A program made the translations under genes and the position numbers. DNA of 64,000 nucleotides from Candidatus Nomurabacteria bacterium RIFCSPHIGHO2_12_FULL_42_19. Its GTDB lineage: Bacteria; Patescibacteriota; Minisyncoccia; Phycocordibacterales; UBA9973. This document shows, in pieces, positions 12,113 to 59,643 of this stretch. Position 1 is the first letter of the stretch. Every line of letters starts with the position of its first letter. Below the pieces are notes generated by a model. The model was not told the origin of the DNA, made no database searches, and worked only from the letters and a program-made list of their open reading frames with translations. The stretch lies in assembly GCA_001786955.1 (NCBI GenBank), contig MFUM01000008.1:11062-75061 (forward strand), read 5' to 3'.

Positions 12113-13690
12113 CTATTTCTGCACTACGTTGAACGCTTCTATCATGTCTCCGGCCACAACTTCTATTTTTGATTCAATCATCATCCCAAACTCGGCGCCT
12201 TCTTCCACGATGCTTGTTTTTACCTTGTTTTTTTCTAAATTCACGATTTTTCCGCGGCCAATTTCAAATTCCCGGCGCATTATTTTTACCGTGCTATTCA
12301 GGTTGATTTGTCCTTCAATTACTTTGCCTCCGACTATTTGGCGTTCTTTTGTGCGGCTAAAAGCCCGGATAATTTTTGCCCGGCCAGTTGTTTCAATTGT
12401 TTCAATTCTCGGTCTTTTTTCTTCCATTTGTTCCTCGAGCCACTCGGTCAGTTTATAAATAATATTAAAAAAAGAAATTATTACTCCTCTTTTTTGCGCG
12501 ATTTCTATGGCGCTCTTGTCGGTCTTCACGTTGAATCCGATGACCAGCGCGTTAATGCCGGATGCCACTCCTTTTATATCCGATTCGGAAATAGGCCCGA
12601 TGCCTTTTCCGACAATTCTGAATTCGGCATTCTTGCTTACGGTGGCGTTAAGCTCGGAGTTTATTTTGGCGATTTCTTTTTCAATAGCTTCAATTGAGCC
12701 GGAAACGTCGGCTTTTAATATTATCGGTATTACTTTTTTACCACTCCCAACCCCCTCCTTATCAAGGCGGGGAATTTCTCCTCCTCGTTGAGGAGGAGTG
12801 TCTGAAGGGTGAGGTGGTAAATTTTTGGCATATTTTTCAGCGTCCGATTTTTTTTGAAAAGATTTGAATTGCGCTCCGACTCTCGGCATCTTGTCAAAAC
12901 CCACAATGCGTATCGGGGAAGAAAAACTGGCTTCGTCTATCATTTTTCCCGAAAAATTTTCAATTATTCGCGTGGAGCACAGGCTGTCTTCCACGACGAC
13001 GGTCATCCCTTTTTTAATTGACCCGTTTTTTATAATCAAAGTTGCCAGTATTCCGCGCCTGGAATCTAGATTTACTTCGATTACAAAGCCGGAAGCGTCT
13101 TCTTCAATGCTGCCGGTCAAATTTTCCATTTCAGCTAAAATCAAGATTAGCGACAGCAGATTGTCTATTCCCGTGCCGATTTTCGCGGAAATTTCCGCGT
13201 AAGGGACTTTTCCTCCGTAATTTTCCAGATAAATTTCATTTTCCGCCAATTCTTTTTTTGTTTTTTCTACATTGGCGCCCGGCTTATCTATTTTATTTAT
13301 TGCGACAATACACGGAGTTTTGGATTCTACGATGGTTTTCCAGGCCTCAATCGTTTGTGGTTTTACGCCATCTTCAGCCGAAACGACCAGAATGGCAATG
13401 TCAGCTATTTGCGCACCTCGTTCCCGCATTTTTGAAAAAGCCTCGTGTCCGGGAGTGTCCAAAAAAGTTATTTTTCTATCTTTCCCATTTTCACCTGCCT
13501 GCGCAGGCAGGTCTTTATGCACAACTTCATAAGCGGAGATTTTCTGAGTTATGCCTCCGGCTTCATTTTCAGTGATATTCGTCTTCCTGATATAATCAAG
13601 CAACGTTGATTTTCCGTGATCAATATGGCCCATAACAACTACTATAGGCGCACGAACCTCCAAATTTAATTTTTTGTCATTTTTTTCCAT
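12113..13690 (-). CDS. infB: Translation initiation factor IF-2 (short form)
   Basis: PIVVVMGHIDHGKSTLLD, EAGGITQ, FLDTPGHEAF, NKID, ILKADVSGSIEA. Confidence 0.97.
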   Translation of the reverse strand: MEKNDKKLNLEVRAPIVVVMGHIDHGKSTLLDYIRKTNITENEAGGITQKISAYEVVHKDLPAQAGENGKDRKITFLDTPGHEAFSKMRERGAQIADIAILVVSAEDGVKPQTIEAWKTIVESKTPCIVAINKIDKPGANVEKTKKELAENEIYLENYGGKVPYAEISAKIGTGIDNLLSLILILAEMENLTGSIEEDASGFVIEVNLDSRRGILATLIIKNGSIKKGMTVVVEDSLCSTRIIENFSGKMIDEASFSSPIRIVGFDKMPRVGAQFKSFQKKSDAEKYAKNLPPHPSDTPPQRGGEIPRLDKEGVGSGKKVIPIILKADVSGSIEAIEKEIAKINSELNATVSKNAEFRIVGKGIGPISESDIKGVASGINALVIGFNVKTDKSAIEIAQKRGVIISFFNIIYKLTEWLEEQMEEKRPRIETIETTGRAKIIRAFSRTKERQIVGGKVIEGQINLNSTVKIMRREFEIGRGKIVNLEKNKVKTSIVEEGAEFGMMIESKIEVVAGDMIEAFNVVQK

Positions 13691-13693
13691 ATA

Positions 13694-14161
13694 TTATACT
13701 TTGGCTTTTTGCAGCGCCTCTTTTTCTTCAGCCGAGAGTTCGTATTCGGATTTTCCATTCTTGACAGGCTTGGCAAATACGCTCATTCGTTCACGGGAAT
13801 ATAAGCTTGAAATTACCAGACCATCGCCTTCCTCATCCAGCATTCCAATCGCAAAACTCTGATTGCTACCCTGGTCGGGAAACGGGTTGAAACGTATTGT
13901 CTCAAGCCCACGAATGCTTTTTTTAAGCTTGGTATTTATCACGGAAATATTTTTTTCCATGTTTTCTTTTGCGATTTTTAATTTGCCGATTTCTTGTTCC
14001 AGCACAACAATAGTATCCTCTAAATTCTTCGCTTTTTTACCGAGGAAAAATCTCTTTAGGCGTTTTTCGGTAACTATCGCCCAAACAGCGCCAATCAAAA
14101 CGGCGATTCCGATAAAAACAAAAAAAGCCAAGAGAAAAATATTATCGAGCTTTATATTCAT
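13694..14161 (-). CDS. DUF4446-like membrane protein
   Basis: N-terminal TM, coiled coil, RFNPFPDQGSNQSFAI..LD..GDGLVISSLYSRE...FAKP..ELSAEE. Confidence 0.8.
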   Translation of the reverse strand: MNIKLDNIFLLAFFVFIGIAVLIGAVWAIVTEKRLKRFFLGKKAKNLEDTIVVLEQEIGKLKIAKENMEKNISVINTKLKKSIRGLETIRFNPFPDQGSNQSFAIGMLDEEGDGLVISSLYSRERMSVFAKPVKNGKSEYELSAEEKEALQKAKV

Positions 14162-14185
14162 GCACTTTCAATATATACTATTTTC

Positions 14186-15457
14186 ATGCCTAAATCAAAT
14201 AAAAATAAGCTAAAAAATATATATCTTGACTATGCCGCTTCGGTCTCGGCTAACCCAAGTTCGATACATTTACTGGGAACAGAAGCCAAAAATGAACTTC
14301 AAAATGCGCGGAGAGTTGTTGCGGGGGTTTTGGGCGTCCGATTCGAAGAAATAATTTTTACGAGCAACGGCACAGAAAGCAATAATCTTGCAATTCAGGG
14401 AATAATTTATGCTGCAGAAAAGCCAGGTTTTCTTCCGCATATTATAACCACCAATATAGAACATCCTTCTGTGTTTGAAACCTGTAAGTTGCTGCAAAAA
14501 AGAAAACTGGCGGAAATTTCTATCATACCGGTCGAGGAGAGTGGAATAGTGGACCCTAAAAAAATAAAAAGAGAAATTAAAAAAAACACGGTGCTTGTTT
14601 CGGTAATGTATGCGAACAATGAAATTGGAACCATCCAGCCGATAAAAGAAATTGCAAAAGAAATTAGACACTTTAAGAAAGTGAAGGCAGGAAGTTTTTC
14701 GAATGGTCTGGCCGGGATTGGGCTGGAATCTGCCCTAAAGACAGATTCCAAAGAGAACCGAGGACCTGAGAAAAATTTACTGCCTTCACGAACTTATCCT
14801 TTTTTCCACACTGATGCTGTGCAGGCGGCAAATTATCTTGATTTAAATGTGGAGAAACTCGGTGTAGATATGTTGACGCTCTCCGGTTCAAAAATTGAAG
14901 GAGCAGGCAGGGTGGGGGTTCTTTATAAAAAGAAGTCAGTACCGCTTGCACCGATATTCGGTGGAGGGGATCAGGAAATGGGACTGCGGCCTGGGACGGA
15001 AAATTTACCGGAGATTTTAAAATTTGTTGAAGCGTTAAAATTAGTCCAGAATGTAAAAGAAAAAGAGGCGAAACGTTTAGCCAAACTCCGCGATTATTTC
15101 ATAAATAAAATTTTTAAAAATACTAGAAACTCAGCGATAGCAGAAAGTTTAGTAATTTTGAATGGAGACGGTAAGAAGCGTTTACCGAATAATGTAAATA
15201 TTAGTTTTCCAAAAATTCCGAGTGATCTTTTAGTTATTGAACTTTCAGCCAAAGGTATAATGGTGTCTTCAAAAAGCGCCTGCAAAAGCGGAGAGAGTGG
15301 AGGTTCGTATGTTATCAAAGCGATACATCCTGAAATAGATTCTGAAACCGGCGGATTGCGTTTTTCATTAGGCCGACAGACAACTAAATCTGACATCGAT
15401 TATACCGTTAAAGTTTTATCCGAAATTTTGACAAAACTGAAAAAATGGTATAATTAA
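14186..15457 (+). CDS. iscS: Cysteine desulfurase (IscS/NifS family)
   Basis: IYLDYAAS, NPSSIH, FTSNGTESNN, ANNEIGTIQPI, HTDAVQA, LRPGTEN, SSKSAC. Confidence 0.92.
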   Translation: MPKSNKNKLKNIYLDYAASVSANPSSIHLLGTEAKNELQNARRVVAGVLGVRFEEIIFTSNGTESNNLAIQGIIYAAEKPGFLPHIITTNIEHPSVFETCKLLQKRKLAEISIIPVEESGIVDPKKIKREIKKNTVLVSVMYANNEIGTIQPIKEIAKEIRHFKKVKAGSFSNGLAGIGLESALKTDSKENRGPEKNLLPSRTYPFFHTDAVQAANYLDLNVEKLGVDMLTLSGSKIEGAGRVGVLYKKKSVPLAPIFGGGDQEMGLRPGTENLPEILKFVEALKLVQNVKEKEAKRLAKLRDYFINKIFKNTRNSAIAESLVILNGDGKKRLPNNVNISFPKIPSDLLVIELSAKGIMVSSKSACKSGESGGSYVIKAIHPEIDSETGGLRFSLGRQTTKSDIDYTVKVLSEILTKLKKWYN

Positions 15458-16283: not shown

Positions 16284-19004
16284 ATGCCGCCATTAAATAA
16301 ATTTACAACCAAAGCCAAAGACGCCATTAAAAAAGCCCATGAGCTGGCTATTGAGCGCGGGATGAACCACGTGTCTTCGCTTCACTTGCTGGCGGCGCTT
16401 TTGCTTCAGGAAGAGTCTATGGTGAATTCTATTTTGGATAAATTAGAGATTGACACGATGCTTTTGACTGATTCCGTCGTGGAACTAATCGAACTGCCGG
16501 AATCGCGCAGTACTCTTTCGCCGTCGTATCAAATTTATCTGAATCCCGATTTAGCCCAAGTCATCGAACAATCGGCCAAATTGGCGGAATATATGAAAGA
16601 CGATTTCGTTTCAACCGAACATCTTTTTATCGCTATCTTGGAAGTCACTAGTGAAGCGCGCGAGACTTTGGCGCGGTTCAGGATCCATAAAGACCAGGTA
16701 ATAAAAGTTTTAGAAGAGCTTCGCAGCCAGAATATCACCGATGTTTCCGAACCGAAAAAATTTAAATTATTGATAAAATACACCCGCAATCTGACCAAGC
16801 TGGCCAAAGAAGACAAGCTGGATCCGGTTATCGGCCGCGATAATGAAATAACCCGCATCATGCAGATACTCTCGCGCCGGACCAAGAATAATCCGATTTT
16901 GATAGGCGAAGCGGGAACTGGCAAGACAGCCGTGGTGGAAGGCCTGGCCCAGATGATTGCAAAAAATAATGTTCCCGAATCTTTAAAAGACAAAGAACTT
17001 GTTTCGCTTGATTTAGGATTGCTCGTGGCCGGCACAAAATATCGCGGAGAGTTTGAGGAAAGGCTGAAAGGCATTATGAAAGAAATTGAGCGGTCCGACG
17101 GAAAAATTATTCTCTTTATTGACGAGATTCATACAATTGTCGGCGCCGGAGGAGCCGAAGGCACGATGGATGCCTCAAATATGCTGAAGCCGGCGCTTTC
17201 TCGCGGGGAATTGCGGGCTATCGGCGCGACGACTTTGCGGGAATATCAGAAGCACATTGAAAAAGATCCGGCTCTGGCCCGCCGATTTCAGCCGGTTTAT
17301 ATTGACGAGCCCAGCGTGGAAGACGCTATTGCCATCCTGCGCGGACTTAAAGAAAAATACGAACTTTTTCATGGTATACGTATTACGGACGATAGCATAA
17401 TTGCCGCGGTCAATCTTTCTTCCCGCTACATCACCAACAGATTCCTACCGGATAAAGCCGTAGATTTGGTTGATGAAGCTTCTTCGTCGCTTAAAATAAT
17501 GCTTGAAAACAAGCCGCCAGTCTTAGAGGACGCGCACAGAAGGACAATGCGTCTAGAAATAGAGAAAGAAGCGCTGAAAAAAGAAATCATTTCTTCAAAT
17601 GGCGGTCAGAAAGATAAGCAAAAAGAAAAGGAAATCAAAAACAGAATTAAAGAAATAGACAAGGAAATAGGCAATTTGTCCGAAAAAACCAGGGAGCTTG
17701 AATTAAAATGGCAGAACGAAAAATCAACCGTAATTGAAATCCGGGCAATCAAGAAAGAATTGGAAAGCATCCGTCTGGAGGCCGAGGATGCGGAAATGAA
17801 AGCGAATCTTTCCCGGGCGGCTGAAATACGCTATGGAAAAATACCTGAGTTGAAAAAAGAACTTGAAATAAAGCTCGCGCGGCTGAAGAAATTGCAAAAA
17901 TCGCGCAGAATTTTGAAAGAAGAAATTACCGCCGAAGATATTGCCGAAGTAGTCGCTCGTTGGACCGGCATACCGCTTACCAAAATGCTTGAAGAAGAGC
18001 GCGAGAAGCTTGATAAGATGGAAACAGAATTAAGGAAAAGAATTGTCGGCCAGGATGCGGCAATCAAGCGGGTTGCCGACGTCATTCGCCGTTCGCGCGC
18101 CGGCATCGGGGATCCGAACCGCCCGATTGGTTCCTTCATATTTTTGGGACCGACCGGGGTCGGCAAGACCGAGCTCACCAAAGCCTTGGGTCAATTCATG
18201 TTCAATGACGACAATGCGATTATCCGGGTAGATATGTCCGAATACATGGAAAGGCATTCAATGTCCAAGCTAATCGGTTCTCCGCCGGGCTATGTGGGTT
18301 ATGATGAAGCGGGTCAGCTGACCGAAGCCGTCCGGCACCGGCCTTATGCCGTCATACTTTTTGACGAAATTGAAAAAGCTCACCCGGAAGTTTTCAATGT
18401 GCTTCTGCAGGTTATCGACGAAGGCAGACTGACTGACGGGAAAGGAAGAGTGGTTAACTTCAAAAACACCATTATTATTCTTACCTCCAATATCGGCTCG
18501 CAATTCGTGGAAAAAATGGAATCAATCGGATTTTCCAATAATTCCAAGAAACAGGATTACGGCAACATGAAGGAAAAAGTTATGGAAGCGTTGAAAGATA
18601 ATTTCCGCCCGGAATTTCTGAATCGCCTGGATGAAATTATTGTTTTTGACGTTTTGTCGGAAGAGTCTCTCAAAGAAATAGTCGGCCTACGGATTAAAAT
18701 AGTCCGGGATCGCCTGGCAGGCAAAGGAATAAATCTTGAAATTTCCGATGAGGCTCTTTCATACTTGGCAAAAGAAGGCTATGACCCGCACTATGGCGCT
18801 CGCCCCCTGAATCGCCTGATTCAAAATAAAATTTTGAATCCAGTCGCTTCATATATCATTTCAAACGGAGTCAAGAAAGGAGATGCTGTTTTTGTGTCTG
18901 TCAAAAATAGTGAACTTGCCATTGAAACCAAAAAAGGCCTGTTCACCGGTAGGCGTGGAAAGATTAAGAGTTCCATTCGCGTACAATCTCATTCTGCGGT
19001 ATAA
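16284..19004 (+). CDS. clpB: ATP-dependent chaperone ClpB
   Basis: Clp N-domain, two AAA+ modules ([16 protein letters not shown]), long middle coiled coil, [11 protein letters not shown]. Confidence 0.95.
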
Positions 19005-19088
19005 AAATCTATTAAAAAAGATGCAAAAATAACAATTTTGTGTTATTTTATACTTGTCCTGCCGAAACTTTAGTGAAGGCGGATGCAC

Positions 19089-19271: not shown

Positions 19272-21152
19272 ATGGAAATCAGGAACATAGCAATTATAGC
19301 TCACGTGGACCACGGCAAGACGACTTTGACCGATGCGCTGATGAAGCAAAACGGTGGGCTTCAAGACGAGGGAGTATCAATGGATTCGAACGATCTTGAA
19401 AAAGAGCGCGGTATTACCATTTATTCTAAAAACACTTCTATCTACTATAAAGACACGAAAATTAATATTGTTGATACTCCCGGTCACGCGGATTTCGGTT
19501 CAGAAGTAGAACGCGTTCTTCGGGCTGTTGACTCGGTTTTACTGCTAGTCGACAGCGCGGAAGGGCCGATGCCGCAGACCCGGTTCGTTTTGAAAAAGTC
19601 TTTGGAACTGGGGCTGAAGCCGATAGTTGTCATAAATAAAATAGACAAACCAGCTTCCGACCCGCACAGGGTGCACGAGGAAATTCTGGAATTATTTTTT
19701 GAATTGGGGGCTAATGAAGAACAGGCAAATTTTGAAACGGTTTATGCAATCGGGCGCGAAGGACTGGCTTTTAGAAACTACCCCACCCCAACCCTCCCCA
19801 AAGGAGAGGGGGAAATTCACAGTCTCCCCCTTGGGGGGAGAGAAAGAGGGGGTGATCTCTCGCCGCTCCTTGACGTAATTTTGGAAAAAGTTCCGCCGGC
19901 TTCCGTAAATGAAAATGGAAAAATGTCCGCGCAAGTTTTTAATCTGGGTTATGATAATTTCTTGGGTCGGATGGCTGTTGCGCGTATTTATTCCGGAAAA
20001 ATATTGTCCGGAAGTCAGATTTTTGTAAAAGGAGAAAACGGCACAAGAAAGGGAAAAATAACGAAGCTTTTTAGTTTTAAGGGCATAGCGAGAAAAGAAA
20101 CAGATTCGGCAATTTCCGGCGACATCGTTCTTTTGGCCGGAATTCCGGACATATATATCGGGGAAACATTATGCGAAGACGAGAGTATCGAGCCGCTCCC
20201 GCATATCGCCATTGATGAGCCGACTCTTTCTCTCAATTTTTTAGTGAACGATTCTCCGTTTGCGGGTCGGGAAGGGAAATTTGTCACTTCTAGACAGCTT
20301 AAAGAAAGGCTGGAAAAAGAATTGGAAATCAACGTCGGCCTCAAAGTTGATTTTTCCCTGCCTGCGCAGACAGGTCCCGACCAAGGCAAAAATAAAATGG
20401 GTCCGTCTTTTTTCAAGGTATACGGCCGGGGAGAACTTCATGTTGCTATTCTGCTGGAAAATATGCGCCGGGAAGGTTTTGAAATGCAGGTATCCCAGCC
20501 GGAAGTTATTATCAAAGAAAATAATGGAGTTAAGACAGAGCCATATGAAGAGTTGATAGTTGATGTTCCGATGGAATATTCCGGAGGGGCGATTGAAAAA
20601 CTCAGCAAAAGGCGCGGTATTATGAAAGACATGGTGGAAAAAGAGGGCATTGCGAGGATTATTTTTGACATACCGACGCGTGGGCTATTGGGTTATCGCG
20701 GCGAATTTATCATAGATACGAAGGGAGAAGGCATAATGTCTTCGCGGGTTACGGGTTTTAAAGAATACGCCGGAGAAATAAAAAAGCGCGAATACGGTTC
20801 CATGACATCCATGGTCGCCGGCAAGGCAGTAGCTTTTTCCCTTGCAAATTTACAGGAACGTGGTATATTATATATTAGTCACGGAACCGAGGTTTATGAA
20901 GGCATGGTGGTTGGCAATGTTTTAAAAGGGGATGACATGTCGGTGAATCCCACAAAAGGGAAACAGCTTACCAATATGCGGGCTTCCGGCACAGACGAAG
21001 CCATAATCCTGAATCCTGTTTTTATTTTGAATATTGAGCGCGGCCTAGAAGTGATGAACGGAGATGATTATTTGGAAATCACGCCGAAATTTGTTAGACT
21101 CCGCAAGAAGTATCTGACGGAACTTGACCGGGTTAAGGCAAAGAGACAATAG
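19272..21152 (+). CDS. typA: Translational GTPase TypA/BipA
   Basis: IRNIAIIAHVDHGKTTL, ERGITI, DTPGHADF, GRGELH, VNPTKGKQLTNMRASG. Confidence 0.97.
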   Translation: MEIRNIAIIAHVDHGKTTLTDALMKQNGGLQDEGVSMDSNDLEKERGITIYSKNTSIYYKDTKINIVDTPGHADFGSEVERVLRAVDSVLLLVDSAEGPMPQTRFVLKKSLELGLKPIVVINKIDKPASDPHRVHEEILELFFELGANEEQANFETVYAIGREGLAFRNYPTPTLPKGEGEIHSLPLGGRERGGDLSPLLDVILEKVPPASVNENGKMSAQVFNLGYDNFLGRMAVARIYSGKILSGSQIFVKGENGTRKGKITKLFSFKGIARKETDSAISGDIVLLAGIPDIYIGETLCEDESIEPLPHIAIDEPTLSLNFLVNDSPFAGREGKFVTSRQLKERLEKELEINVGLKVDFSLPAQTGPDQGKNKMGPSFFKVYGRGELHVAILLENMRREGFEMQVSQPEVIIKENNGVKTEPYEELIVDVPMEYSGGAIEKLSKRRGIMKDMVEKEGIARIIFDIPTRGLLGYRGEFIIDTKGEGIMSSRVTGFKEYAGEIKKREYGSMTSMVAGKAVAFSLANLQERGILYISHGTEVYEGMVVGNVLKGDDMSVNPTKGKQLTNMRASGTDEAIILNPVFILNIERGLEVMNGDDYLEITPKFVRLRKKYLTELDRVKAKRQ

Positions 21153-22221: not shown

Positions 22222-22298
22222 ACTCTCCCCCAGTCTCTCCCTTGTCAGGGCGAGGAAAAAAGCAGCAAGTTCCCTTGATAAGGGGGACATAGGGGGTT
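22222..22298. repeat. Intergenic CCCC/GGGG multi-hairpin element
   Basis: CTCCCTTGTCAGGG and TCCCTTGATAAGGGGGACATAGGGGG; similar to the in-frame element in mnmA at 26132-26205. Confidence 0.75.
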
Positions 22299-25278: not shown

Positions 25279-26433
25279 ATGAAGAAAAAAAAAGTATTTG
25301 TCGGACTTTCGGGGGGCGTAGATAGCGCTGTGAGTGCTGCAATCCTGAAGAAAAAAAATTATGAAGTTGTCGGGGTTTTTATCAAAACCTGGCACCCGGA
25401 CTTTTTAATATGCAATGAAGAAGAAGAACGCCGGGACGCTATGCGTGTGGCGGCCTTTTTAGATATCCCATTCCTGGCTTTTGATTTTGAAGATGTATAT
25501 AAAAAAGAAGTTGCCGATTATATGATTAGGGAATATAAAGCCGGCAAAACGCCTAATCCGGATGTGATGTGTAACAAAGAAGTGAAGTTCGGCATTTTTC
25601 TTAAAAAAGCGTTGTCTATGGGGGCGGATTATATAGCGACAGGACATTATGCAAGAGTGAGCGGGGCAGGGAATTCTTTTTCTCGGGAATATCCTGCTTC
25701 GCATCGTCACCACTCAAAAAAGTATTCCCTGCTCCGCTCCCCGGATAACACGAAAGACCAGAGTTATTTTCTTTGGACGCTCAAACAGGAGCAATTAAAG
25801 AAGATTTTATTTCCCATCGGGCATTTAAAAAAAACGAAAGTCCGCAAATTGGCAAAAAAATTCAATTTACCGGTTGCGGAAAAAAAAGACAGCCAAGGCA
25901 TATGCTTTTTGGGCGCGGTGGATTTAAAAGAATTTTTAAAGCATTATATCAAGTCTAAAAAGGGGAAAGTGTTGGACGAAAAAGGAGAAGAAATAGGTTT
26001 TCACGATGGCGTTGCATTTCATACACTGGGAGAAAGGCATGGTTTCACGATTACTAAAAAAAGTCCGGCTGGCGGTCCGTATTACATAGTAGGCAAAAAT
26101 GTAAAGAAGAATATTTTAATTGCTTCTCAAATCCCCCCTGATAAGGGGGGACAAAGGGGGGTTGAATTTAAAAAACCCCTCCCGACCTCCCCTTATCAAG
26201 GGAGGCTAAAAATACAAATAGAAAATACAAATTGGATTACTAAAGTCCCAAACCCAAAAAAGACTTACACGGCTCAAATCCGCTATCATGGCGAATTTTT
26301 ACCCTGCAAAGTAATTTGCGCAAAGTCGAATTTTGCACAGGTGATTTTTGAAAAGCCGATTTTAGTTGCCTCCGGCCAGTCTTGTGTTGTTTATGACAAA
26401 GATATTTGCTTGGGCGGGGGAGTAGTTGTATGA
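25279..26433 (+). CDS. mnmA: tRNA 2-thiouridylase MnmA
   Basis: SGGVDSAV, TPNPDVMCNKEVKF, ATGHY, KDQSYFL, KKDSQGICF, GQSCVVY. Confidence 0.96.
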   Translation: MKKKKVFVGLSGGVDSAVSAAILKKKNYEVVGVFIKTWHPDFLICNEEEERRDAMRVAAFLDIPFLAFDFEDVYKKEVADYMIREYKAGKTPNPDVMCNKEVKFGIFLKKALSMGADYIATGHYARVSGAGNSFSREYPASHRHHSKKYSLLRSPDNTKDQSYFLWTLKQEQLKKILFPIGHLKKTKVRKLAKKFNLPVAEKKDSQGICFLGAVDLKEFLKHYIKSKKGKVLDEKGEEIGFHDGVAFHTLGERHGFTITKKSPAGGPYYIVGKNVKKNILIASQIPPDKGGQRGVEFKKPLPTSPYQGRLKIQIENTNWITKVPNPKKTYTAQIRYHGEFLPCKVICAKSNFAQVIFEKPILVASGQSCVVYDKDICLGGGVVV

Positions 26434-26914: not shown

Positions 26915-28563
26915 TGAAACAAATGCAATCGGAAGAGATTAGGTCCAGGTTTTTAAAATTTTTTTCCGCCAAAGGCGGACCCGCCTCGGGCGGGGAAGGG
27001 CATAAAATAATTCCTTCCGCTTCTTTGGTGCCGGAAAACGACCCTTCGGTGCTTTTTACGACTGCCGGAATGCAGCAATTCAAGCTGTATTATACGGGCG
27101 AAAAAAATGCGGAAAAAGATTTTGAAACAAAAAATGTTGTTTCTGTACAAAAATGCATCAGAACTTCGGATATAGACGAAGTAGGGGACGACACGCATAA
27201 CACATTTTTTGAAATGTTGGGCAACTTCTCTTTCGGCGGGTATTGGAAGAAAGAAGCCATAGAATATGCTTATGAATTTATCACACAAGAATTGGAACTC
27301 ACGATAGATTATGTTTCTGTTTTTGAAGGAGATGCGGAAACGTCAGCCGACAATGAATCAAGAGAAATCTGGAAAAATATTAACCCGAAACTTGTTATTA
27401 AAAATCACAATCGCGCGGATAATTTTTGGGGACCAACTGGGGATGAAGGCCCCTGTGGCCCGACGACGGAGATATATATAAATGGGGTAGAAATATGGAA
27501 TATTGTTTTTAACGAGTTTTATAAAACCAAAGAAGGGAAGTATGAGCCTTTAAAAATAAAAGGAATTGATACGGGCATGGGACTTGAGAGACTTTTAGTG
27601 CAGGTGCAAAAGAAAAATAATATTTACGAGACTGATTTATTTAATAATGAAAAAACTAGAGAAGAACGCATCGTGGCTGACCACGTGAAAGCAGCTCTTT
27701 TTATGATTTCCGACGGAGTTACTCCTTCAAATACAGGAACTGGATATGTTTTACGGAGATTAATCAGGCGAGCAGTTAGATTTTCTAAAAATCCACTAAA
27801 GGAAGAAATTAAGAAAATTCAAAAAATATATAAAGATGTATATGTTTTAGATAGTAAAAGAGAAATAGAGAAAGAAGAAAATAAATTTAAAGAAACTTTA
27901 AATAAAGGTTTGAGAGAATTTGAAAAAGGCATTGATCCTTTTATTTTGGCAACTACTTATGGTTTTCCAATTGAATTAACTCTCGAACTTGCCAAAGAAA
28001 AAGGCCAAAATATAGACCTGGAAGATTTTAATAATAAACTAAAAGCGCATGTTATGCTTTCCCAGACTTCCTCGGCCGGAATGTTCAAGGGCGGGTTGGC
28101 TAATCACAATGAAAAAACAATAAAACTGCATACCGCTCACCACTTGCTCCTGGCGGGCCTACAGGCCATTGTGAGCCCGGAAATCAAGCAAAGGGGGAGC
28201 AACATTACCGAAGAGCGCTTACGCATGGATTTTTTATGCGACCATAAATTGACCGACGAGGAGAAGAAAAAAGTAGAAGATTGGGTAAATGACAAAATCA
28301 AGGAAGGTTTAAATATTGAACGCCGCGAAATGCCTCTAGCTGAAGCGAAAAAAATCGGAGCCGAAATGGAATTTGGCGCCAAATATCCGGATGTTGTATC
28401 CCTGTATTTCATAGAAGATAAAAACGGCAATCCTGTTTCTAAAGAATTTTGCGGAGGTCCGCACGTAAAAAATACCTCAGAATTGGGCCGATTTAAAATT
28501 CAAAAAGAAGAAGCGGTGGCACAGGGAATCAGGCGTATAAAGGCTGCACTTATGCTACAATAA
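26914..28563 (+). CDS. alaS: Alanine--tRNA ligase (short form, no C-Ala domain)
   Basis: DPSVLFTTAGMQ, QKCIR, FFEMLGNFSFG, IDTGMGLER, HTAHHLL and EFCGGPH editing motifs; ends just after GIRRIKA. Confidence 0.95.
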   Translation: MKQMQSEEIRSRFLKFFSAKGGPASGGEGHKIIPSASLVPENDPSVLFTTAGMQQFKLYYTGEKNAEKDFETKNVVSVQKCIRTSDIDEVGDDTHNTFFEMLGNFSFGGYWKKEAIEYAYEFITQELELTIDYVSVFEGDAETSADNESREIWKNINPKLVIKNHNRADNFWGPTGDEGPCGPTTEIYINGVEIWNIVFNEFYKTKEGKYEPLKIKGIDTGMGLERLLVQVQKKNNIYETDLFNNEKTREERIVADHVKAALFMISDGVTPSNTGTGYVLRRLIRRAVRFSKNPLKEEIKKIQKIYKDVYVLDSKREIEKEENKFKETLNKGLREFEKGIDPFILATTYGFPIELTLELAKEKGQNIDLEDFNNKLKAHVMLSQTSSAGMFKGGLANHNEKTIKLHTAHHLLLAGLQAIVSPEIKQRGSNITEERLRMDFLCDHKLTDEEKKKVEDWVNDKIKEGLNIERREMPLAEAKKIGAEMEFGAKYPDVVSLYFIEDKNGNPVSKEFCGGPHVKNTSELGRFKIQKEEAVAQGIRRIKAALMLQ

Positions 28564-31056: not shown

Positions 31057-31323
31057 ATGAATGAGCCCAAAAGTGAAAAAATCGTAACAGCAAAAGGAAT
31101 TGTTACCGAGGCCCTGCCTAGTACTTTGTTTAAAGTCAAAATACATGCCCGTCCTCACGATGGTTTAGGAGCAAGCGGGGAAGATAAAGACGGCGAGAAG
31201 GAGATTCTCGCATACCTTGGAGGGAAAATGCGGATGCATAGAATTAAAGTTCTGATTGGAGATTCAGTAGAAGTTGTGCTCGATTCTTATGGCGGGAAAG
31301 GCAGGATAATTAAAAGGTTGTAA
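31057..31323 (+). CDS. infA: Translation initiation factor IF-1
   Basis: GIVTEALPSTLFKV, ILAYLGGKMRMHRIKVLIGD.V.V, GRII.R. Confidence 0.95.
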   Translation: MNEPKSEKIVTAKGIVTEALPSTLFKVKIHARPHDGLGASGEDKDGEKEILAYLGGKMRMHRIKVLIGDSVEVVLDSYGGKGRIIKRL

Positions 31324-33140: not shown

Positions 33141-34124
33141 ATGCCTGAATATAAAATAATTATGCCTTCCAAGCCTCGTGTTGTTTTAGAAGAAGGTAAT
33201 AAGGGAGTATTTGAAATAGACGGCTTATACCCCGGGTACGGCCATACTTTAGGCAACAGCTTGAGGAGAATAATTCTTTCTTCATTACCGGGAGCCAGCA
33301 TTGTCTCTGTCAAGATTGACGGAGTATCGCACGAATTTCAAACAATGAATGGAATCAAAGAAGATGTAATCATAATAATTCTGAACCTGAAAAAAATTCG
33401 TTTCAGAATGCTGTCCGACGAGCCTCAGACGGTCACGCTCTCCATCAAAGGCCCGAAGGAAGTCACGGCAACAGACATAAAAACCGGGGGGCAAGTGGAG
33501 ATTTTAAATCCGGAACTCCACATAGCGGAGGTTACAGGCAAGGTGAATTTGAACATAGAAATGAAAATTGAAAAGGGCTTGGGTTTTATTCCGAAAGAAA
33601 TTTTTCAAAAAGAAAAAGTTGATGTCGGCACTATTGCGGTTGATGCGATTTTTACCCCGATTCGCCGGGTTGCCTATGAAGTTGAAAATATGCGTGTTGG
33701 CGACAAGACCAACCACAATCGCCTGAGAATTTCAATCGAGACGGACGGTACTTTGACCGCCCGCGAGGCTCTTTCGCATTCTATTGAAATTATGATAAAT
33801 CAACTGAAAGCTATTATTGATTTTAAGGAAACAGAAGAAGTTCCAGTTGAGAACAAAGAAGAAGAGAAAAAACCTGCCCGCAATGCTTCGCATAGCGAAG
33901 CAGGTGGGGGAGGTGATTTCGTTGACATTTTAAAAACCCGCACGGACAGCCTGGATCTTTCCACCAGAACCCTAAATGCGCTTACTTCCGCGAATATCCG
34001 GACACTGGGAGGCTTGGCTCGAAAAAAGCGCGAAGATTTGTTGGAAGTGGAAGGCATCGGCGAGAAAGGAATTACGGAAATTAAAAAAGTTTTAAATAAA
34101 TTCGGACTTAACCTGAAGGAATAA
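33141..34124 (+). CDS. rpoA: RNA polymerase alpha subunit
   Basis: GYGHTLGNSLRRIILSSLPG, VDAIFTPI, VENMRVG, alpha-CTD LSTRTLNAL. Confidence 0.98.
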   Translation: MPEYKIIMPSKPRVVLEEGNKGVFEIDGLYPGYGHTLGNSLRRIILSSLPGASIVSVKIDGVSHEFQTMNGIKEDVIIIILNLKKIRFRMLSDEPQTVTLSIKGPKEVTATDIKTGGQVEILNPELHIAEVTGKVNLNIEMKIEKGLGFIPKEIFQKEKVDVGTIAVDAIFTPIRRVAYEVENMRVGDKTNHNRLRISIETDGTLTAREALSHSIEIMINQLKAIIDFKETEEVPVENKEEEKKPARNASHSEAGGGGDFVDILKTRTDSLDLSTRTLNALTSANIRTLGGLARKKREDLLEVEGIGEKGITEIKKVLNKFGLNLKE

Positions 34125-45707: not shown

Positions 45708-47810
45708 ATGGATTTGCCGGAAATACCCATAAATAAAGATGTTACTTATCTCGGTCTAACGACTTATCGGGACAAAAACACACTTTTTGGCATTAAGCGC
45801 AAAGACCGGCGTCAGCATGTTTATCTGCTCGGAAAATCCGGGACCGGTAAATCTGTCCTAATGTTCAACATGATTATCCAGAATATCCAGAACGGCGAAG
45901 GGGTTTGCTTGGTTGACCCGCACGGAGAGAATGTTGAAGCGGTTTTATCCGCCATTCCGCCTCATCGCATGAAAGATGTCATTTATTTTAATCCGGCCGA
46001 TGCGGACTATCATATCGGTTTTAACGTTTTGGAGCTGATTGACCCGCAATACAAGCATCTGGTGGCTTCCGGCTTGATGGGTATTTTTACCAAAATCTGG
46101 GCCAATGCTTGGAGTGCCCGGATGGAATATATTTTAAATAATACGATTTTGGCCCTGCTGGATACGCCGGGCACGACGCTTCTTGGTATTCCCCGAATGC
46201 TGGTGGATAAAGATTACCGTCAGAAAATAATTTCCAATTTGAAAGACCCCGTCATCAAGGCTTTTTGGGTTCACGAATACGAAGCTTGGCAGGATAAATT
46301 CAGAAATGAAGCCATTGCGCCGATTCAGAACAAAGTTGGGCAGTTTCTTTCCACTTCTATCATCCGGAATGTTGTCGGCCAGTCCAAAAGCACCATCAAT
46401 GTTTTTGACATGATGAATGAGGGAAAGATTTTCCTGGTAAATGTTTCCAAAGGGCGTATCGGCGAAGACAACTCCGCCTTGCTGGGCGGCATGATTATTA
46501 CCAAAATCCAGCTGGCAGCCATGGAACGTGTGCGCATTCCCGAAGAACATCGCAGGGACTTTTACCTTTACGTGGATGAATTCCAGAATTTCGTGACGGA
46601 TGCTTTCGCGGGCATTTTATCCGAAGCCAGAAAATACAGACTGAATCTGACCGTGGCTCATCAATATACTGCCCAACTTGTTTCGGATAAAAGCACGGCG
46701 GTGCGCGATGCCGTTTTCGGCAACGTCGGGACGATGATAGTTTTTCGTGTTGGTGCGGACGATGCCGATTTTCTGGAAAAAGAATTCGAACCGGAATTTA
46801 TTCCTCAGGACATAGTTAATTTACCGAACTATAAAGTTTATATGAAATTAATGATAGACGGCGTAACTTCCAGGCCGTTTTCCGCCAAGACTTTGCCACA
46901 GATGGTAAAGTCCGGTGATAAAAAAATAGAAGAAGAGGTTATCCAGTCTTCGCGCGCCCTTTATTGCCGTCCGAAAGAGGTTGTGGAGCGGGAAATCAAT
47001 GACTGGAGCGGAATGTCTCTCGGCAATGACAATGAAACTGCCCCGGGAAGCCTGGAAAAATTTCCGGCTGTTTGTTCATTTTGCAAGAAAGAAACAACCG
47101 TGCCTTTCAAGCCGGAGCCGGGCAGGACAGTTTATTGCAAAGATTGCATAGCCAGAATAAAATCCGGGGAGATAAAAGTGGAAAAGAGCGGAGAACATCA
47201 AATCAAGCATGATGAAACAAAATTTTTTAAGCCATTAGCCGACATAGGGATAGAGTTTGAACAAAAAGACAGGGGTAAAATAGAAGAAGGGGAGAGATAT
47301 CCGGAGCGGGGAGATCACCACTTGGATAAACCTAAATCTGGAGTATTCGGAGCGATTAAAAAAGTTTTTACCTCGCCGCCGAAAGTTTCTAAACCTGCCC
47401 ACGCAGGCGGGGATAATTCGGCCTTGAGAGAAGTTTTAAAAAAGATAGATGAACCTATTTCACTCGATACGCTAAAAAATAAAACTAAAGAAGTCAGTAA
47501 AATTTCTATGCCCTCAAAAGACAGAGCCGCCAGCCCGGAAGATATGAATAAATTAAAAGATTTGATTGCGGAAAAAATTCCTGCCCGCAATGCTTCTAGC
47601 ATAGCTGATGCAGGCGGGGAACCCAAAGAAGAAAACACCACCCCGGCTAAAGCCACCCCTCCTCCGAAAGGAGGGGAAGAAATTCCCCAAAAACCTACAC
47701 CCGTCTCTACTCAAGGCTCCGGCGAGGCAAAGCCAGTTCAAGAGCCTCCACTGACAAAAGGAAACATTCAAGAAATCCCCGAAGATGTCTTAAGAAAAAT
47801 TTTAGAATAG
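45708..47810 (+). CDS. VirD4/VirB4 (TraD/HerA-like) ATPase with CxxC-x17-CxxC domain and disordered tail
   Basis: DRRQHVYLLGKSGTGKS, VDPHGE, LYVDEFQNF, ILSEARKY; CSFC-x17-CKDC. Confidence 0.88.
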   Translation: MDLPEIPINKDVTYLGLTTYRDKNTLFGIKRKDRRQHVYLLGKSGTGKSVLMFNMIIQNIQNGEGVCLVDPHGENVEAVLSAIPPHRMKDVIYFNPADADYHIGFNVLELIDPQYKHLVASGLMGIFTKIWANAWSARMEYILNNTILALLDTPGTTLLGIPRMLVDKDYRQKIISNLKDPVIKAFWVHEYEAWQDKFRNEAIAPIQNKVGQFLSTSIIRNVVGQSKSTINVFDMMNEGKIFLVNVSKGRIGEDNSALLGGMIITKIQLAAMERVRIPEEHRRDFYLYVDEFQNFVTDAFAGILSEARKYRLNLTVAHQYTAQLVSDKSTAVRDAVFGNVGTMIVFRVGADDADFLEKEFEPEFIPQDIVNLPNYKVYMKLMIDGVTSRPFSAKTLPQMVKSGDKKIEEEVIQSSRALYCRPKEVVEREINDWSGMSLGNDNETAPGSLEKFPAVCSFCKKETTVPFKPEPGRTVYCKDCIARIKSGEIKVEKSGEHQIKHDETKFFKPLADIGIEFEQKDRGKIEEGERYPERGDHHLDKPKSGVFGAIKKVFTSPPKVSKPAHAGGDNSALREVLKKIDEPISLDTLKNKTKEVSKISMPSKDRAASPEDMNKLKDLIAEKIPARNASSIADAGGEPKEENTTPAKATPPPKGGEEIPQKPTPVSTQGSGEAKPVQEPPLTKGNIQEIPEDVLRKILE

Positions 47811-47812
47811 AG

Positions 47813-47843
47813 TCTATTCTATAATTCTATAGAATATTAGAAT
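47813..47843 (+). repeat. 31-bp near-palindromic site, copy C
   Basis: Identical to copy A; identity extends through ATGAAAACAGAA. Confidence 0.95.
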
Positions 47844-49602: not shown

Positions 49603-49639
49603 AAACTAAGATTTCTGCTATCGCAGAGTTTTAAGTAAA

Positions 49640-53207: not shown

Positions 53208-53245
53208 AACCCTTCCCGCCTGCGAAGGAGGGGATTGAGGGGTGG

Positions 53246-53962
53246 TTAGATGCCTTTTACCGTCCGGTAAGTGGCTATAATGGCGGCAGTTTCGGCGCGT
53301 AGAGTAAGTGACCCCAGGGAATAAATATTATAACCAGAATTTTTTGCCAAGTTTATCTCCTTTTCCGTAAAACCGCCTTCGGGACCGATAAAAATGCTGA
53401 TATTCTGTGCTTCCTTGTTCGGGATATATAAATTATTTCCTAAATGAAAAATTATTTTTTCTTCTGCTTTGTTTCCGTCAGTTAAGGCGTCTTTAAATTT
53501 TAGAATAGGAAATAATTCCGGGACGAAACTTCTCCCGGACTGCTCACTTGCTTCCAAGATTATTTTTTTTAGACGGTCTGTGTTTAATCCGGTTTTTATT
53601 GTTCTTTCAGTGATTGTCGGTATGATTTCCGAAACTCCGGCCTCAACCGCTTTCTGTACCGCTAACTCGAAATTTTCTTTTTTCAAAATTGCCAGATACA
53701 GACTCACTTTTCTTTTGGTTTTGTCTTTTTTTTCTACTTTATTAATGATACCCGTAACTTTATTTGCAGATACTAGAACCAAAGTTACTTCCGCATTATT
53801 TCCCTTGCCATCTGCGAGAATTATTATATCGTCTTTTTTTAATCTCAAAACGCCCTTTATTTGCTTGATTATTTTGGTATCAAGAATTTCCACTTCTGTA
53901 CCCGAGATAAATCCCTGTCCGCCTTTGGTGGAATAGTTCCCGATAAATCTGTTTAGTCGCAT
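53246..53962 (-). CDS. rsmE: 16S rRNA m3U1498 methyltransferase RsmE
   Basis: VLRLK, QKAVEAGV, EASEQSGR, IGPEGGFT, LG..TLRAETA. Confidence 0.95.
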   Translation of the reverse strand: MRLNRFIGNYSTKGGQGFISGTEVEILDTKIIKQIKGVLRLKKDDIIILADGKGNNAEVTLVLVSANKVTGIINKVEKKDKTKRKVSLYLAILKKENFELAVQKAVEAGVSEIIPTITERTIKTGLNTDRLKKIILEASEQSGRSFVPELFPILKFKDALTDGNKAEEKIIFHLGNNLYIPNKEAQNISIFIGPEGGFTEKEINLAKNSGYNIYSLGSLTLRAETAAIIATYRTVKGI

Positions 53963-55611: not shown

Positions 55612-56715
55612 ATGTCAAAAGACTACTATGAGACATTGGGAGTAAATAAGAGCGCATCCAAAGACGAGATTAAGAAGGCTTTTTATAAATTGGCGCACAA
55701 GTATCATCCCGACAAAAAAGGCGGCAATGAAGCGAAATTCAAGCAGGTCAACGAGGCTTATCAGGTGCTTTCGGATGATGCCAAGCGCACAAAATATGAC
55801 CAGTTCGGTAGCGCCTACGCCGAAGGCTTCGGCGGTTCGCAGTCCGGTGGATTTAAAGGCGGTTTTGAAGGTTTTGATTTTTCCGGAAGAGGCGGACAAG
55901 CATACGGCGGCGCGGATTTTGACTTCGGGAATCTTAACGATATTTTCAGCGATTTTTTCGGAGGCGGAATGGGGGAAGAAAGGTCACAGGCGCGCCGCGG
56001 CCGGGATATTTCCACCGAAATTCAGATTTCTTTTTCCGATTCTATTTTTGGAATGAATCGGAAAATTCTAATTACTAAAACTTCAAATTGTCTCACTTGC
56101 AATGGTTTCGGCGCCAAGGCCGGCTCCAAGATGGAGACTTGCAAGCATTGCAATGGCCAAGGTAAGATTCGCGAATCCAAGAGAACGATTTTTGGGACTA
56201 TCGCCAATACAAAGATTTGCGAAGCCTGTCTGGGGACGGGAGAAGTGCCGAAAGAGATTTGCGACAGATGTAAGGGCAGGGGGGTGCTTCGCCGCGAAGA
56301 GGAAGTTTCAATTATTATTCCTCCGGGCATACGCGACGGCGAGATGGTCCGGATGACGAGCTATGGCGAAGCGATTTCCAGGGGAACAGCGGGGGATCTT
56401 TATATAAAAATAAATGTAACACCGCATCCCGTCTTCAAACGGGAAGGCAATGATTTGGCAATGAACTTAAATCTGAAGCTTTCTGACGCGCTTCTCGGAA
56501 CCAAATATCCGATTCAAACTCTGGATGGGGATATTGAGGTTACGATTCCGGAGGGCGTCGCGATGAATGAAATTCTGCGAGTGCGGGGGAAAGGTGTGCC
56601 GGTTTCCAAGAACAAACGCGGCGATTTGTTAATTAAACTCAACATAAAACTCCCCGGCAGGCTTTCCCGCAAATCTCAAGAACTCATCGAGGAGCTCAAA
56701 AAAGAGGGGATCTAA
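55612..56715 (+). CDS. dnaJ: Chaperone DnaJ
   Basis: J-domain with HPD, G/F-rich region, four CxxCxGxG repeats. Confidence 0.98.
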   Translation: MSKDYYETLGVNKSASKDEIKKAFYKLAHKYHPDKKGGNEAKFKQVNEAYQVLSDDAKRTKYDQFGSAYAEGFGGSQSGGFKGGFEGFDFSGRGGQAYGGADFDFGNLNDIFSDFFGGGMGEERSQARRGRDISTEIQISFSDSIFGMNRKILITKTSNCLTCNGFGAKAGSKMETCKHCNGQGKIRESKRTIFGTIANTKICEACLGTGEVPKEICDRCKGRGVLRREEEVSIIIPPGIRDGEMVRMTSYGEAISRGTAGDLYIKINVTPHPVFKREGNDLAMNLNLKLSDALLGTKYPIQTLDGDIEVTIPEGVAMNEILRVRGKGVPVSKNKRGDLLIKLNIKLPGRLSRKSQELIEELKKEGI

Positions 56716-57315: not shown

Positions 57316-58186
57316 ATTTATTTGTCATGATTTTATAGCAGAGCAGGGCAGCGCCGAATTCGGTAAGGACTGACCCGGATATCGTGGAGACTTCCACGAT
57401 ATCCGCGCCGATTACGTTTTTTTCCCGGAACAATTTTTCTATCAGATTGAGCGTATAATTCCAGTCCAGTCCTCCCTGTACCGGCGTGCCGGTGCCGGGC
57501 ATAAAACCGGGATCTATGCCATCCACATCCAGAGATAAATAAACCTTTTTTGTTTTAATGGATTTTACAATATCGCCGATTTTGGGAATTTTGTTGTCCT
57601 TGGTCCAGGGAAATACTTTTATTGTTTTTTTATTTTTTTGCCAAAAATTATATTCATATTTGGAAAAAGTTCGGATGCCGACCTGGACAATGGGAAAACC
57701 AATATCATGCGCCCTGCGCATTGTGCAGGAATGGGCGTATTTTGTAATATGGTCGCTATAATCACTGTTGTCTTCTCGCAAATCCTGATGAGCGTCTATT
57801 TGGAAAATAGTGATATCTTCCGGATTTTCTTTTTTTAGGATTGCGTCCAATGCGCCGAGCGCCACTGTATGCTCGCCGCCAAGCATGATTACAAATTTTT
57901 TATCACTGAATAGTTTCTCATATTCGGAACTTATTTTCTTGATTGCTTTTTCCGGAATAAGTTTTTTAAGGCCGGATATTTCCCTGTGAGCGGTTTTTAT
58001 TTTTTTTGCCGGCTCGCACAATAAATCGGTATCAAAAAGCTCCAAATTTTCATTAAGAATTTTCAGTATTTTTTGGGGTGCTTTCGCGGTTCCTCCCATA
58101 AAAGAAACACCCCCCTCATAGGGAGCACTTAGTATCACAATGTCGGCTTTTTTTGCATCTTTTGTATTTATGACAGTATCTATCAT
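57296..58186 (-). CDS. speB: Agmatinase (ureohydrolase family)
   Basis: LGGEHT, IDAHQDLR, SLDVDGIDP..MPGTGTPVQGG, GADIVE. Confidence 0.88.
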   Translation of the reverse strand: MIDTVINTKDAKKADIVILSAPYEGGVSFMGGTAKAPQKILKILNENLELFDTDLLCEPAKKIKTAHREISGLKKLIPEKAIKKISSEYEKLFSDKKFVIMLGGEHTVALGALDAILKKENPEDITIFQIDAHQDLREDNSDYSDHITKYAHSCTMRRAHDIGFPIVQVGIRTFSKYEYNFWQKNKKTIKVFPWTKDNKIPKIGDIVKSIKTKKVYLSLDVDGIDPGFMPGTGTPVQGGLDWNYTLNLIEKLFREKNVIGADIVEVSTISGSVLTEFGAALLCYKIMTNKFRKKLK

Positions 58187-58224
58187 AAAATATATGTTAT
58201 CAGTTTTCAGTTTTTATGCAAATT

Positions 58225-59643
58225 TCAGATTTTCTTTTTTGTAAAAGTGGTTCCTGTTGCTGTATTTTTTACTTCATATTCCCACTTTTTTTCTATTTTT
58301 TCTCTTATTCTATCAGATTCTTTGAAGTTTTTATTTTTACGAGCCTCCTCTATTTTTTCGCCTAACTTCAATATTTCCTCCGGAATTATTTCTTCTTTTA
58401 AATCTGCAAAACCAAGTCCAAATATTTTATCAAAATCCAGAATTGTCGCTTTTTTGTCGGCATTTGAGATATTTTCGTCTTTGAATACATCCCACAACAG
58501 CGACAATGCCCGTGGCGTATCCAGGTCGTCCTCCAGGAATTCTTTGAACTTATTTTGATATTCCTGGTGAATGTGTCCAACCTGCCCCGTCCTTGGCGGG
58601 GTCTCGTTTTCCAGGTCCAAATAGAGCCCATATAGGCGTTTTAAGGCTGTTTCTGCGCCCTCCAGGGCTTCCCAGACAAAGTTTACTTTAGTGCGGTAGT
58701 TTGCCATTAATAGCCAAAAACGGTAGGTTGCAGGGCTGATATTCTTAACAGCCAAACTTTCCAGTCTCAGAAAATTGTTTTCTGATTTTGACATTTTTAC
58801 GCCGCCAGTATCAACAAATTCACTGTGCATCCAAAACCTGACGAAAGGTTTTTTACCGGTTGCGCATTCCGACTGGGCTATTTCATTAGTGTGATGCGTG
58901 GGAATAAGGTCAATGCCCCCCGTGTGAATATCAAATTGTTCGCCTAAAAATTTCATGCCCATGGCAGAACATTCTATATGCCAGCCCGGAAAGCCTTTGC
59001 CCCATGGAGATTCAAAACCGATTTTTGAATTAAATTTCCAAAGCGCGAAATCTTCCGAGTTTATCTTTTCTGAATTTTCAATAATTCTTGACCTGGATTC
59101 CTCTCGATTTTTAGCAACTCCCCACAATATTCCATAATCAGGCATTTTTGAAGTATTAAAATAAATTCCATCGCTTATTTTGTATGTATATCCTTTTTCT
59201 TCCAACTTCTGCACAAGTTCTATATCTTCTTTCACATAATCGCTTGCATAATAAATATTCTCCGGTATTTCAATGTTTAATGCCTGCAAATCCTCTTTAA
59301 ATTTTTCTGTATAAAATTCTGCCATCTCCCGCATATTTTTGAGCGTGAATTCTTTGCCTTCGCGCAAAAGGCCTTTCGTCATTTTATCTTCTCCCGAATC
59401 CGCATCGCTGGAAAGATGCCCGATGTCGGTAATATTCATTACTCGCCTGACTTTATATCCGCTATATTCTAAAGTTTTTTGCAAAATATCGGCAAAGACA
59501 TAGGCTCGTAAATTGCCAATGTGGGCATAATCATAAACCGTCGGTCCGCAGGAATAAAAACTTACGTCCGGCGGATTAATCGGGGCAAAAATTTCTTTTT
59601 TCCGCGAGAGTGTATTATAAAATTGGATTTTGCTTGAATTCAT
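58225..59643 (-). CDS. cysS: Cysteine--tRNA ligase
   Basis: CGPTVY..AHIGN, PGWHIECSAM, DIHTGG, KMSKS. Confidence 0.97.
   Translation of the reverse strand: MNSSKIQFYNTLSRKKEIFAPINPPDVSFYSCGPTVYDYAHIGNLRAYVFADILQKTLEYSGYKVRRVMNITDIGHLSSDADSGEDKMTKGLLREGKEFTLKNMREMAEFYTEKFKEDLQALNIEIPENIYYASDYVKEDIELVQKLEEKGYTYKISDGIYFNTSKMPDYGILWGVAKNREESRSRIIENSEKINSEDFALWKFNSKIGFESPWGKGFPGWHIECSAMGMKFLGEQFDIHTGGIDLIPTHHTNEIAQSECATGKKPFVRFWMHSEFVDTGGVKMSKSENNFLRLESLAVKNISPATYRFWLLMANYRTKVNFVWEALEGAETALKRLYGLYLDLENETPPRTGQVGHIHQEYQNKFKEFLEDDLDTPRALSLLWDVFKDENISNADKKATILDFDKIFGLGFADLKEEIIPEEILKLGEKIEEARKNKNFKESDRIREKIEKKWEYEVKNTATGTTFTKKKI

Follow-up and report, generated by a model that had tools for sequence, protein, structure and literature searches.

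Palindromic insertion into core proteins is real in Candidatus Nomurabacteria bacterium RIFCSPHIGHO2_12_FULL_42_19, whose genome (here G000) has 656 kb, 41% GC, 11 contigs and about 90% coding DNA by our set of open reading frames (ORFs). The stretch analysed, referred to as the window, comprises 64,000 nucleotides of contig MFUM01000008.1 (assembly GCA_001786955.1, positions 11,062 to 75,061), in which an earlier note had described GC-rich hairpins lying in frame within about a dozen core proteins. The hairpins belong to several families, and these are paired with nuclease genes: family D with DUF559 nucleases, families A and B each with one small clade of GIY-YIG proteins, and other palindromes with RAYT-like proteins.

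All 22 stretches listed in the earlier note lie where it placed them and its gene names are correct; the names are backed by NCBIfam, the VirD4-like label resting on weak hits below the cut-off. Hairpins that score at least 20 number 24 in the window, versus 1-5 in five shuffles of it. The comparison set consisted of four nearly whole genomes of the same genus (G007, G013, G017 and G018; median identity 68-75%) and parts of two more, and three to six same-genus orthologs were compared per site. By ortholog alignment, 10 of the 15 listed coding sites are lineage-specific insertions: IF2 (13493), TypA (two sites), AlaRS, CysRS, RsmE, IscS, IF1 and MnmA (two sites, at both of which the relatives are either short or bear other hairpins). 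The other five did not stand as insertions. RpoA and DnaJ have family-like hairpins without net length gain, i.e., replacements, while the IF2 site at 12738 and the VirD4-like tail hold family copies within length-variable regions; the tail, previously taken for a single 336-nt element, consists instead of four short pieces. The ClpB stretch, put forward as a more degenerate candidate, is doubtful and is rejected as a likely member, with two of five orthologs equally long and no second copy found.

Of 29 TypA sequences, one has the first insert (19780), and the second (20357) occurs in one of the 27 in which that site is covered; among the 29, other genomes have different palindromes in the same or adjacent loops. 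In an AlphaFold model of TypA (20 sequences), the inserts occupy low-confidence loops between secondary-structure elements, at residues 174-193 (pLDDT <50) and 363-379, in agreement with the proposal that surviving hits lie in loops. Contigs of other groundwater and soil runs, which possibly belong to one sampling campaign, span the two inserts of IF2, the two of TypA and the one of IscS with no difference. The features of the window, with length gains relative to orthologs, are as follows.

2720..2738: intergenic family C copy, ending 1 nt ahead of the gyrA start codon.
11284..11316, plus strand: family B2 copy lying between genes in a tRNA cluster; G000 has 6 copies.
12079..12112: half element of family D, between genes and directly adjoining the stop codon of IF2.
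12738..12820: double hairpin of family D in the variable linker of IF2; near-full-length copies elsewhere in G000 and in G018.
13494..13511, minus-strand gene: family A in IF2 (site 13493), a perfect 18-nt palindrome read LPAQAG; exact gain of 6 aa, absent from 5 of 5 orthologs.
14681..14789: long element in IscS with 20-nt inverted arms; +21 to +34 aa. Its GC-rich inner unit recurs between genes, and also at the same IscS site in G006, with other arms.
15121..15153: second IscS hairpin, in frame and absent from the earlier list; +3 to +7 aa, with an inverted intergenic copy at 49605-49637.
18937..18954: C-terminal ClpB candidate, doubtful in view of ortholog lengths and with no second copy found.
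19780..19853: TypA carries a double hairpin of family D here (+19 aa), the first half of which matches a DUF559 cassette at its left end.
19058..19083, plus strand: family B2 copy between genes, 5 nt ahead of a tRNA gene.
20357..20374: 18-mer of family A that lengthens TypA by exactly 6 aa, without duplication of the target.
22222..22298: double hairpin of family D, between genes; its best match is the right end of the G000 DUF559 cassette (score 22).
25659..25739: long-armed element in MnmA; its inner unit recurs at G000:C4, and the loop holds different hairpins in relatives.
26132..26205: double hairpin of family D in MnmA, resembling hairpins at the right end of the G000 DUF559 gene.
26965..26995: tandem pair of family C hairpins in AlaRS, +8 aa; resembles an element upstream of a GIY-YIG gene in G007.
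31146..31179, plus strand: family B variant in IF1, +9 to +15 aa; a second in-frame copy lies at G000:C9.
33873..33908, plus strand: 36-mer of family B in the linker of RpoA, where it is read PARNASHSEAGG and adds no net length.
47394..47729, plus strand: the four pieces of the VirD4-like tail, namely an A-type piece (47394-47411), a B 39-mer (47580-47618), a D hairpin (47656-47676) and a degenerate piece near 47698-47729.
53210..53246: half element of family D, between genes.
53914..53932: RsmE carries a family C element here (+7 aa), which matches 2714-2741 in inverted orientation.
55813..55835: hairpin in the G/F region of DnaJ, resembling flanks of the GIY-YIG genes of G000 itself; no net gain.
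55877-55903: second DnaJ hairpin, C-like.
58580..58602: short hairpin in CysRS, +7 aa; two more copies in G000.
62646..62697: intergenic family D element.

Family A is an 18-nt palindrome. Family B is a nested hairpin of 36 or 39 nt, with ends of the same kind as A and an inner stem that varies with compensating changes (covariation at the nucleotide level); B2 is a relative of B. Family C is a hairpin of 15-16 nt, often doubled, and family D is a double hairpin of C-run and G-run. An additional, long-armed type occurs in IscS and MnmA. Genome-wide motif counts in G000, set against three shuffles, were 18 versus 0 for A, 14 versus 0 for B, 9 versus 0 for C and 71 versus 6-9 for D; a loose sixth motif (B2; 57 versus 20-38) and motif E (1 versus 0-1) were uninformative. 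The inference of several mini-element families in the earlier note is borne out: families A to D lie far above the shuffles, and ortholog alignments show clean gaps. An Rfam scan of the window matched five tRNAs and none of the elements. A look for RNA runs containing the stretch listed none, which says nothing about its expression.

Core genes with family motifs number 44 of 384 in G000 (about one in nine), 36 of 374 in G007, 8 of 372 and 10 of 366 in the others, and 1 of 364 in G017; the D pattern has some background in these counts. Independently of motifs, there are 57 G000-specific insertions in 47 of the 384 core genes, and 25 of the insertions have a strong stem, versus 8% of control segments. 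The corresponding strong-stem share of lineage-specific insertions is 36/73 in G007, 5/16 in G013, 3/23 in G018 and 0/24 in G017. Most copies of three families in G000 lie inside ORFs (A, 17 of 18; B, 10 of 14; C, 7 of 10), as do 29 of 61 copies of D. More widely, the exact B 36-mer is found in records of Patescibacteria, Kiritimatiellia, Verrucomicrobia, Lentisphaerae and some Proteobacteria, in an estimated ~430 stretches. In viral contigs, matches to a loose A/B pattern showed no frame signal, and 0 of 121 unique loci had a GIY-YIG neighbour; these are probably chance matches.

Elements of one family are nested at three loci (L219, L229 and G000:C4:13061), which suggests that hairpins are preferred targets of further insertion. 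There is also a case in which family B lies at one junction of one gene in both G000 (C8:7390) and G007 (C1:73885), with differing inner stems (36 and 39 nt). The two genomes closer to G000 lack the element, and the site may represent either a hotspot or a history of loss or recombination.

Insertion is precise at many sites. Element length and net gain agree exactly at 8 of 13 non-terminal sites for A and at 8 of 17 for B, and the remaining A and B sites are mostly in variable regions or nested. Within both IF2 and TypA, insertion of the 18-mer falls after the second base of a host codon, without duplication, and no target-site duplication was seen at clean A and B sites generally. In-gene lengths are multiples of three, as expected from the frame-preserving insertion that had been proposed. 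The accompanying idea, that selection retains the hits that preserve the frame, holds but has to be extended: one stop-free frame is strongly preferred, so selection goes beyond length.

The common form of family B has five stop-free frames. Twenty-three of 25 in-gene copies in five genomes read PARNA...DAGG, although some of these are possibly co-inherited. Across phyla the same frame is used in 35 of the 43 B loci with a single long open frame (of 120 loci, 69 have none and 8 have several). Family A is read LPAQAG in 13 of 15 in-gene copies in the five genomes, and its preferred frame accounts for 35 of 51 in metagenomes. From the junction dinucleotides, an even distribution of about one third per frame would be expected. 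Cys, Arg or hydrophobic residues are more frequent in the disfavoured frames, and the hairpin inserts as a whole are enriched in Gly and Pro. The one-frame bias argues for translation of the inserts and for selection at the peptide level; if so, they would add new peptide sequence to essential proteins.

The earlier note saw no mobilising enzyme in the window, which is correct, but candidate genes are encoded elsewhere in G000: one full-length DUF559 nuclease, seven small GIY-YIG proteins and two RAYT-like proteins. For the families of the window, the DUF559 and GIY-YIG nucleases are better partner candidates than a RAYT.

The DUF559 gene of G000 lies about 20 kb past the window end, between D hairpins that are similar to those of MnmA and of the element at 22222. 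A survey of 151 genomes of the order gave 21 full-length DUF559 genes, 6 of them without a locus. D hairpins lie on both sides of all 15 that were examined (12 by pattern and 3 by eye), and of none of 8 weak hits. Copies of D away from the gene are present in 9 of 12 genomes with DUF559 versus 3 of 139 without. Family D shares its ends with a coding cassette. Long genes contain two of the cassettes (L186 and L209) whole and in frame, free of stop codons and with hairpin ends that are predicted to be translated; from their motifs, we take the host genes to be LeuRS-like and Tgt-like. The left end of one of these cassettes aligns with the first half of the TypA insert at 19780, and the TypA insert reads as such a cassette with its gene deleted. 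For the DUF559 cassette of G000, the site is empty in two of four relatives.

For families A and B, the candidate partners are small GIY-YIG proteins; the only NCBIfam hits of such proteins were weak and to unrelated GIY-YIG entries. In a tree of 71 of them (2 of 60 fetched loci had no ORF and were omitted, and an 'ABC' call at L214 was the tRNA's own end), one supported three-member clade has A upstream in 3 of 3 cases and a second such clade has B upstream, also in 3 of 3; C is found at two unplaced genes, and 62 of the 71 genes have no element. GIY-YIG genes of the A/B layout precede a tRNA gene, and the element is within a duplicated 5' piece of the tRNA. Among the 120 B loci, 9 have a GIY-YIG gene within 300 nt. 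Seven of these genes start 17-31 nt away, and all seven are closest to the B clade, one of the proteins being identical to a protein already in the tree. One GIY-YIG cassette of G000 corresponds to an empty site in three of three comparable relatives. Several further small GIY-YIG clades are bounded by inverted repeats of ~20 nt (L211, L215, L220, L224, L227 and L032), and one such repeat pair resembles an in-frame insert at G000:C9:32019.

RAYT-like genes have palindromes of their own. Five RAYT-flanking palindromes, in-frame copies included, are confined or nearly confined to the genome with the matching gene; of the 12 palindromes that were picked automatically, one was a low-complexity word that gave no information, and another occurred only beside its gene. 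The MnmA insert of G007 is a RAYT-flanking palindrome, and one RAYT-like gene of G000 has an empty site in four of four relatives. The listed inserts of the window do not match the palindromes of RAYT-like genes. G007 has ten RAYT-like genes in 646 kb, most with their own palindrome.

We consider it probable that the hairpins are non-autonomous mobile elements, derived from, and recognised by, small nuclease cassettes and copied with the help of host repair. In such a scenario, the nuclease would recognise its own hairpin, probably in single-stranded DNA as Ssn does, and cut; repair or template switching after the cut would then write a copy at a new site, without duplication. Because about 90% of the genome is coding, most landings would be in genes, and purifying selection would keep multiples of three in tolerant loops that read as small polar peptides. 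In the G000 assembly, A and B would be orphan families, their partner clades having been lost or left unassembled. Mobilisation by these enzymes would fit the pairings and empty sites. A bolder proposal, which we would put somewhat short of an even chance, is that minimal nuclease genes of two unrelated folds, DUF559 and tiny GIY-YIG, between cognate hairpins form a transposase-free mobile class, copying themselves and bare hairpins precisely, without target duplication and across phyla.

Several observations weigh against mobilisation by the nucleases. The pairing is known from sequence, and cutting and copying are predicted activities. Only 1 of 119 A18 loci has an adjoining gene of the A clade, and G000 is rich in A and B yet lacks both clades in its assembly. 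Within tRNA remnants, A and B occur at varying positions and orientations, and could be passengers; for the long-armed elements of IscS and MnmA, no nuclease partner was found. A blanket flank test was weak, 9 of 57 G000 inserts matching a nuclease flank versus 5 for random gene ends (the figures for G007 are 27 of 73 versus 13). With regard to family D, the pattern was built after the DUF559 flanks had been seen, kin are not independent, and a reversed control of the pattern rang in one DUF559-positive genome; moreover, G017 has a flanked DUF559 gene yet 0 of 24 hairpin inserts. Finally, the TypA model is moderate (mean pLDDT 64.5), with the C-terminal domain unresolved.

Some of these points would suit a different view, which we regard as unlikely, in which the hairpins are spread by host processes such as template switching in replication, gene conversion or recombination after DNA uptake. 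The nucleases beside them would then use the hairpins as targets, in the manner of Ssn and NTS in limiting transformation, or else tRNA remnants and cassette ends would be neutral sinks. The abundance of A and B in a genome without their clades, the nesting of elements in one another and in tRNA remnants, and the weak flank test all agree with this, as does the report that cutting, and not copying, was shown for Ssn (PMC11893778). It is harder to reconcile with an identical 36-mer in many phyla, with copies that follow their cognate enzyme between genomes, and with cassettes that are themselves recent insertions, two of them in frame inside housekeeping genes.

The remaining alternatives concern the nature of the inserts. 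Elements acting at the RNA level, such as mini-introns or regulatory stems that are removed or ignored before translation, would explain why stems covary in nucleotides; we think them very improbable, given in-gene lengths in multiples of three, the dominance of one among several stop-free frames, and Rfam matches in the window to the five tRNAs only. It seems similarly improbable that the peptides have been selected for a function, for example as interaction tags or flexible linkers, beyond mere tolerance. One preferred frame, repeated hits in the same loops and the B element at the same junction in G000 and G007 might be read that way, but close relatives either lack each insert or have unrelated ones, and G017 is nearly empty. 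Chance runs of GC-rich Pro/Gly codons or assembly artefacts would account for ClpB and possibly for DnaJ. For most sites they are already refuted by the motif counts, by clean ortholog gaps and by the identical contigs of other runs, and as a general explanation we give them almost no credence. Mobilisation by small nuclease cassettes is the reading we prefer.

Other features of the window were observed that may or may not be related. An AT-rich near-palindrome is found at the heads of Cys-rich paralogous genes (36160-36195, 39677-39712 and 47813-47843); there are six Cys-rich paralogs around dnaK, and the two tested had no NCBIfam match. A pair of 102-nt inverted repeats, 80% alike, lies between genes at 25168-25269 and 41457-41558 and is possibly another element family. 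CysRS (58225-59643) exceeds its orthologs in length at two further segments (around residues 74 and 91), neither with a clear hairpin, and may be of a different type from the CysRS of relatives. A GC-rich ORF (10090-10665) beside the tRNA cluster has no NCBIfam match.

The findings bear on how REP-like palindromes spread without a RAYT, which is an open question: no enzyme was found for CGTC repeats (PMC3733652), and mobility of Ssn cassettes is only hypothesised (PMC11893778). They name specific pairs of small enzyme and hairpin, including the DUF559 pairing, which we did not find in print: our search of the open-access literature returned neither DUF559 together with palindromic repeats nor an account of such elements in Patescibacteria. 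The one-frame bias amounts to a natural experiment on which random peptides are tolerated by essential proteins. In practical terms, the inserts distort marker-gene alignments and phylogenies in this lineage, and they illustrate that a streamlined 656-kb genome can bear a heavy load of selfish DNA within its genes. If the nucleases do form a transposase-free class, they would be the missing engine for coding palindromes of the Rickettsia palindromic element (RPE) kind, and a steady source of new peptides in essential proteins of ultra-small bacteria.

Both in-frame palindromes (the RPEs and intragenic REPs) and the pairing of GIY-YIG enzyme and hairpin (Ssn) are already known, and the comparisons here follow the accessible portions of the sources cited. 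RPEs comprise several palindromic families found in frame in unrelated housekeeping genes, where they encode a conserved peptide (PMC10969869, PMC3733652). The elements described here resemble them in being in-frame palindromes within conserved genes, absent from orthologs, with one preferred frame and a conserved peptide. They differ in length, RPEs being ~150 bp whereas ours are mostly 18-110 nt (18-109 at the listed sites), in their density within so small a genome (44 of 384 core genes in 656 kb) and in having identifiable candidate partner nucleases. For the CGTC class, which includes RPE-4 and RPE-6, no dedicated enzyme was found (PMC3733652).

REP and REPIN systems with RAYT or TIRYT have Y1 HUH genes flanked by inverted palindromes that are dispersed in the same genome, and some REPs are intragenic, e.g., in O. 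terrae (PMC3733652, PMC6006769). Our RAYT-like genes, of Y1 HUH type and with their own dispersed palindromes, correspond to this arrangement for palindromes outside the window but not for its listed inserts; they are patchy and multiple, with empty sites in relatives. Moreover, REPs are mostly extragenic, whereas A, B and C are mostly, and D about half, in ORFs, and the 5-nt flanks of A, B and C lack a terminal GTAG or CGTC (B2 has both words, internally only). Prokaryotic MITEs are non-autonomous, derive from the ends of coding elements and have been reported in in-frame fusions (PMC10969869, PMC3184786). Family D, sharing its ends with the DUF559 cassette, is similar in this respect; the differences are the absence of target duplication at clean A and B sites and partners that are nucleases rather than DDE transposases.

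A parallel in layout is Ssn, which cuts single-stranded DNA beside its own hairpin and for whose cassettes an IS-like origin was raised as a hypothesis (PMC11893778). In both cases a small single-domain GIY-YIG gene lies by a cognate hairpin that recurs through the genome (PMC11893778). However, only 2% of NTS are intragenic in N. meningitidis, as against 17 of 18 A and 10 of 14 B copies in ORFs here, and by inspection families A-D are unlike the NTS consensus (PMC11893778). Our cassettes are also located at tRNA genes, and a PD-(D/E)xK-type family, DUF559, has the same layout. Neisseria Drg, considered as a precedent, is unrelated on the evidence of the accessible text (PMC4269198), and a preprint (bioRxiv 10.1101/2023.02.02.526783) proved to have no bearing on the subject. 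Compared by description, the elements work like RPEs and intragenic REPs, and are set apart by their lengths, their tags and their genomic placement (PMC10969869, PMC3733652, PMC3184786).

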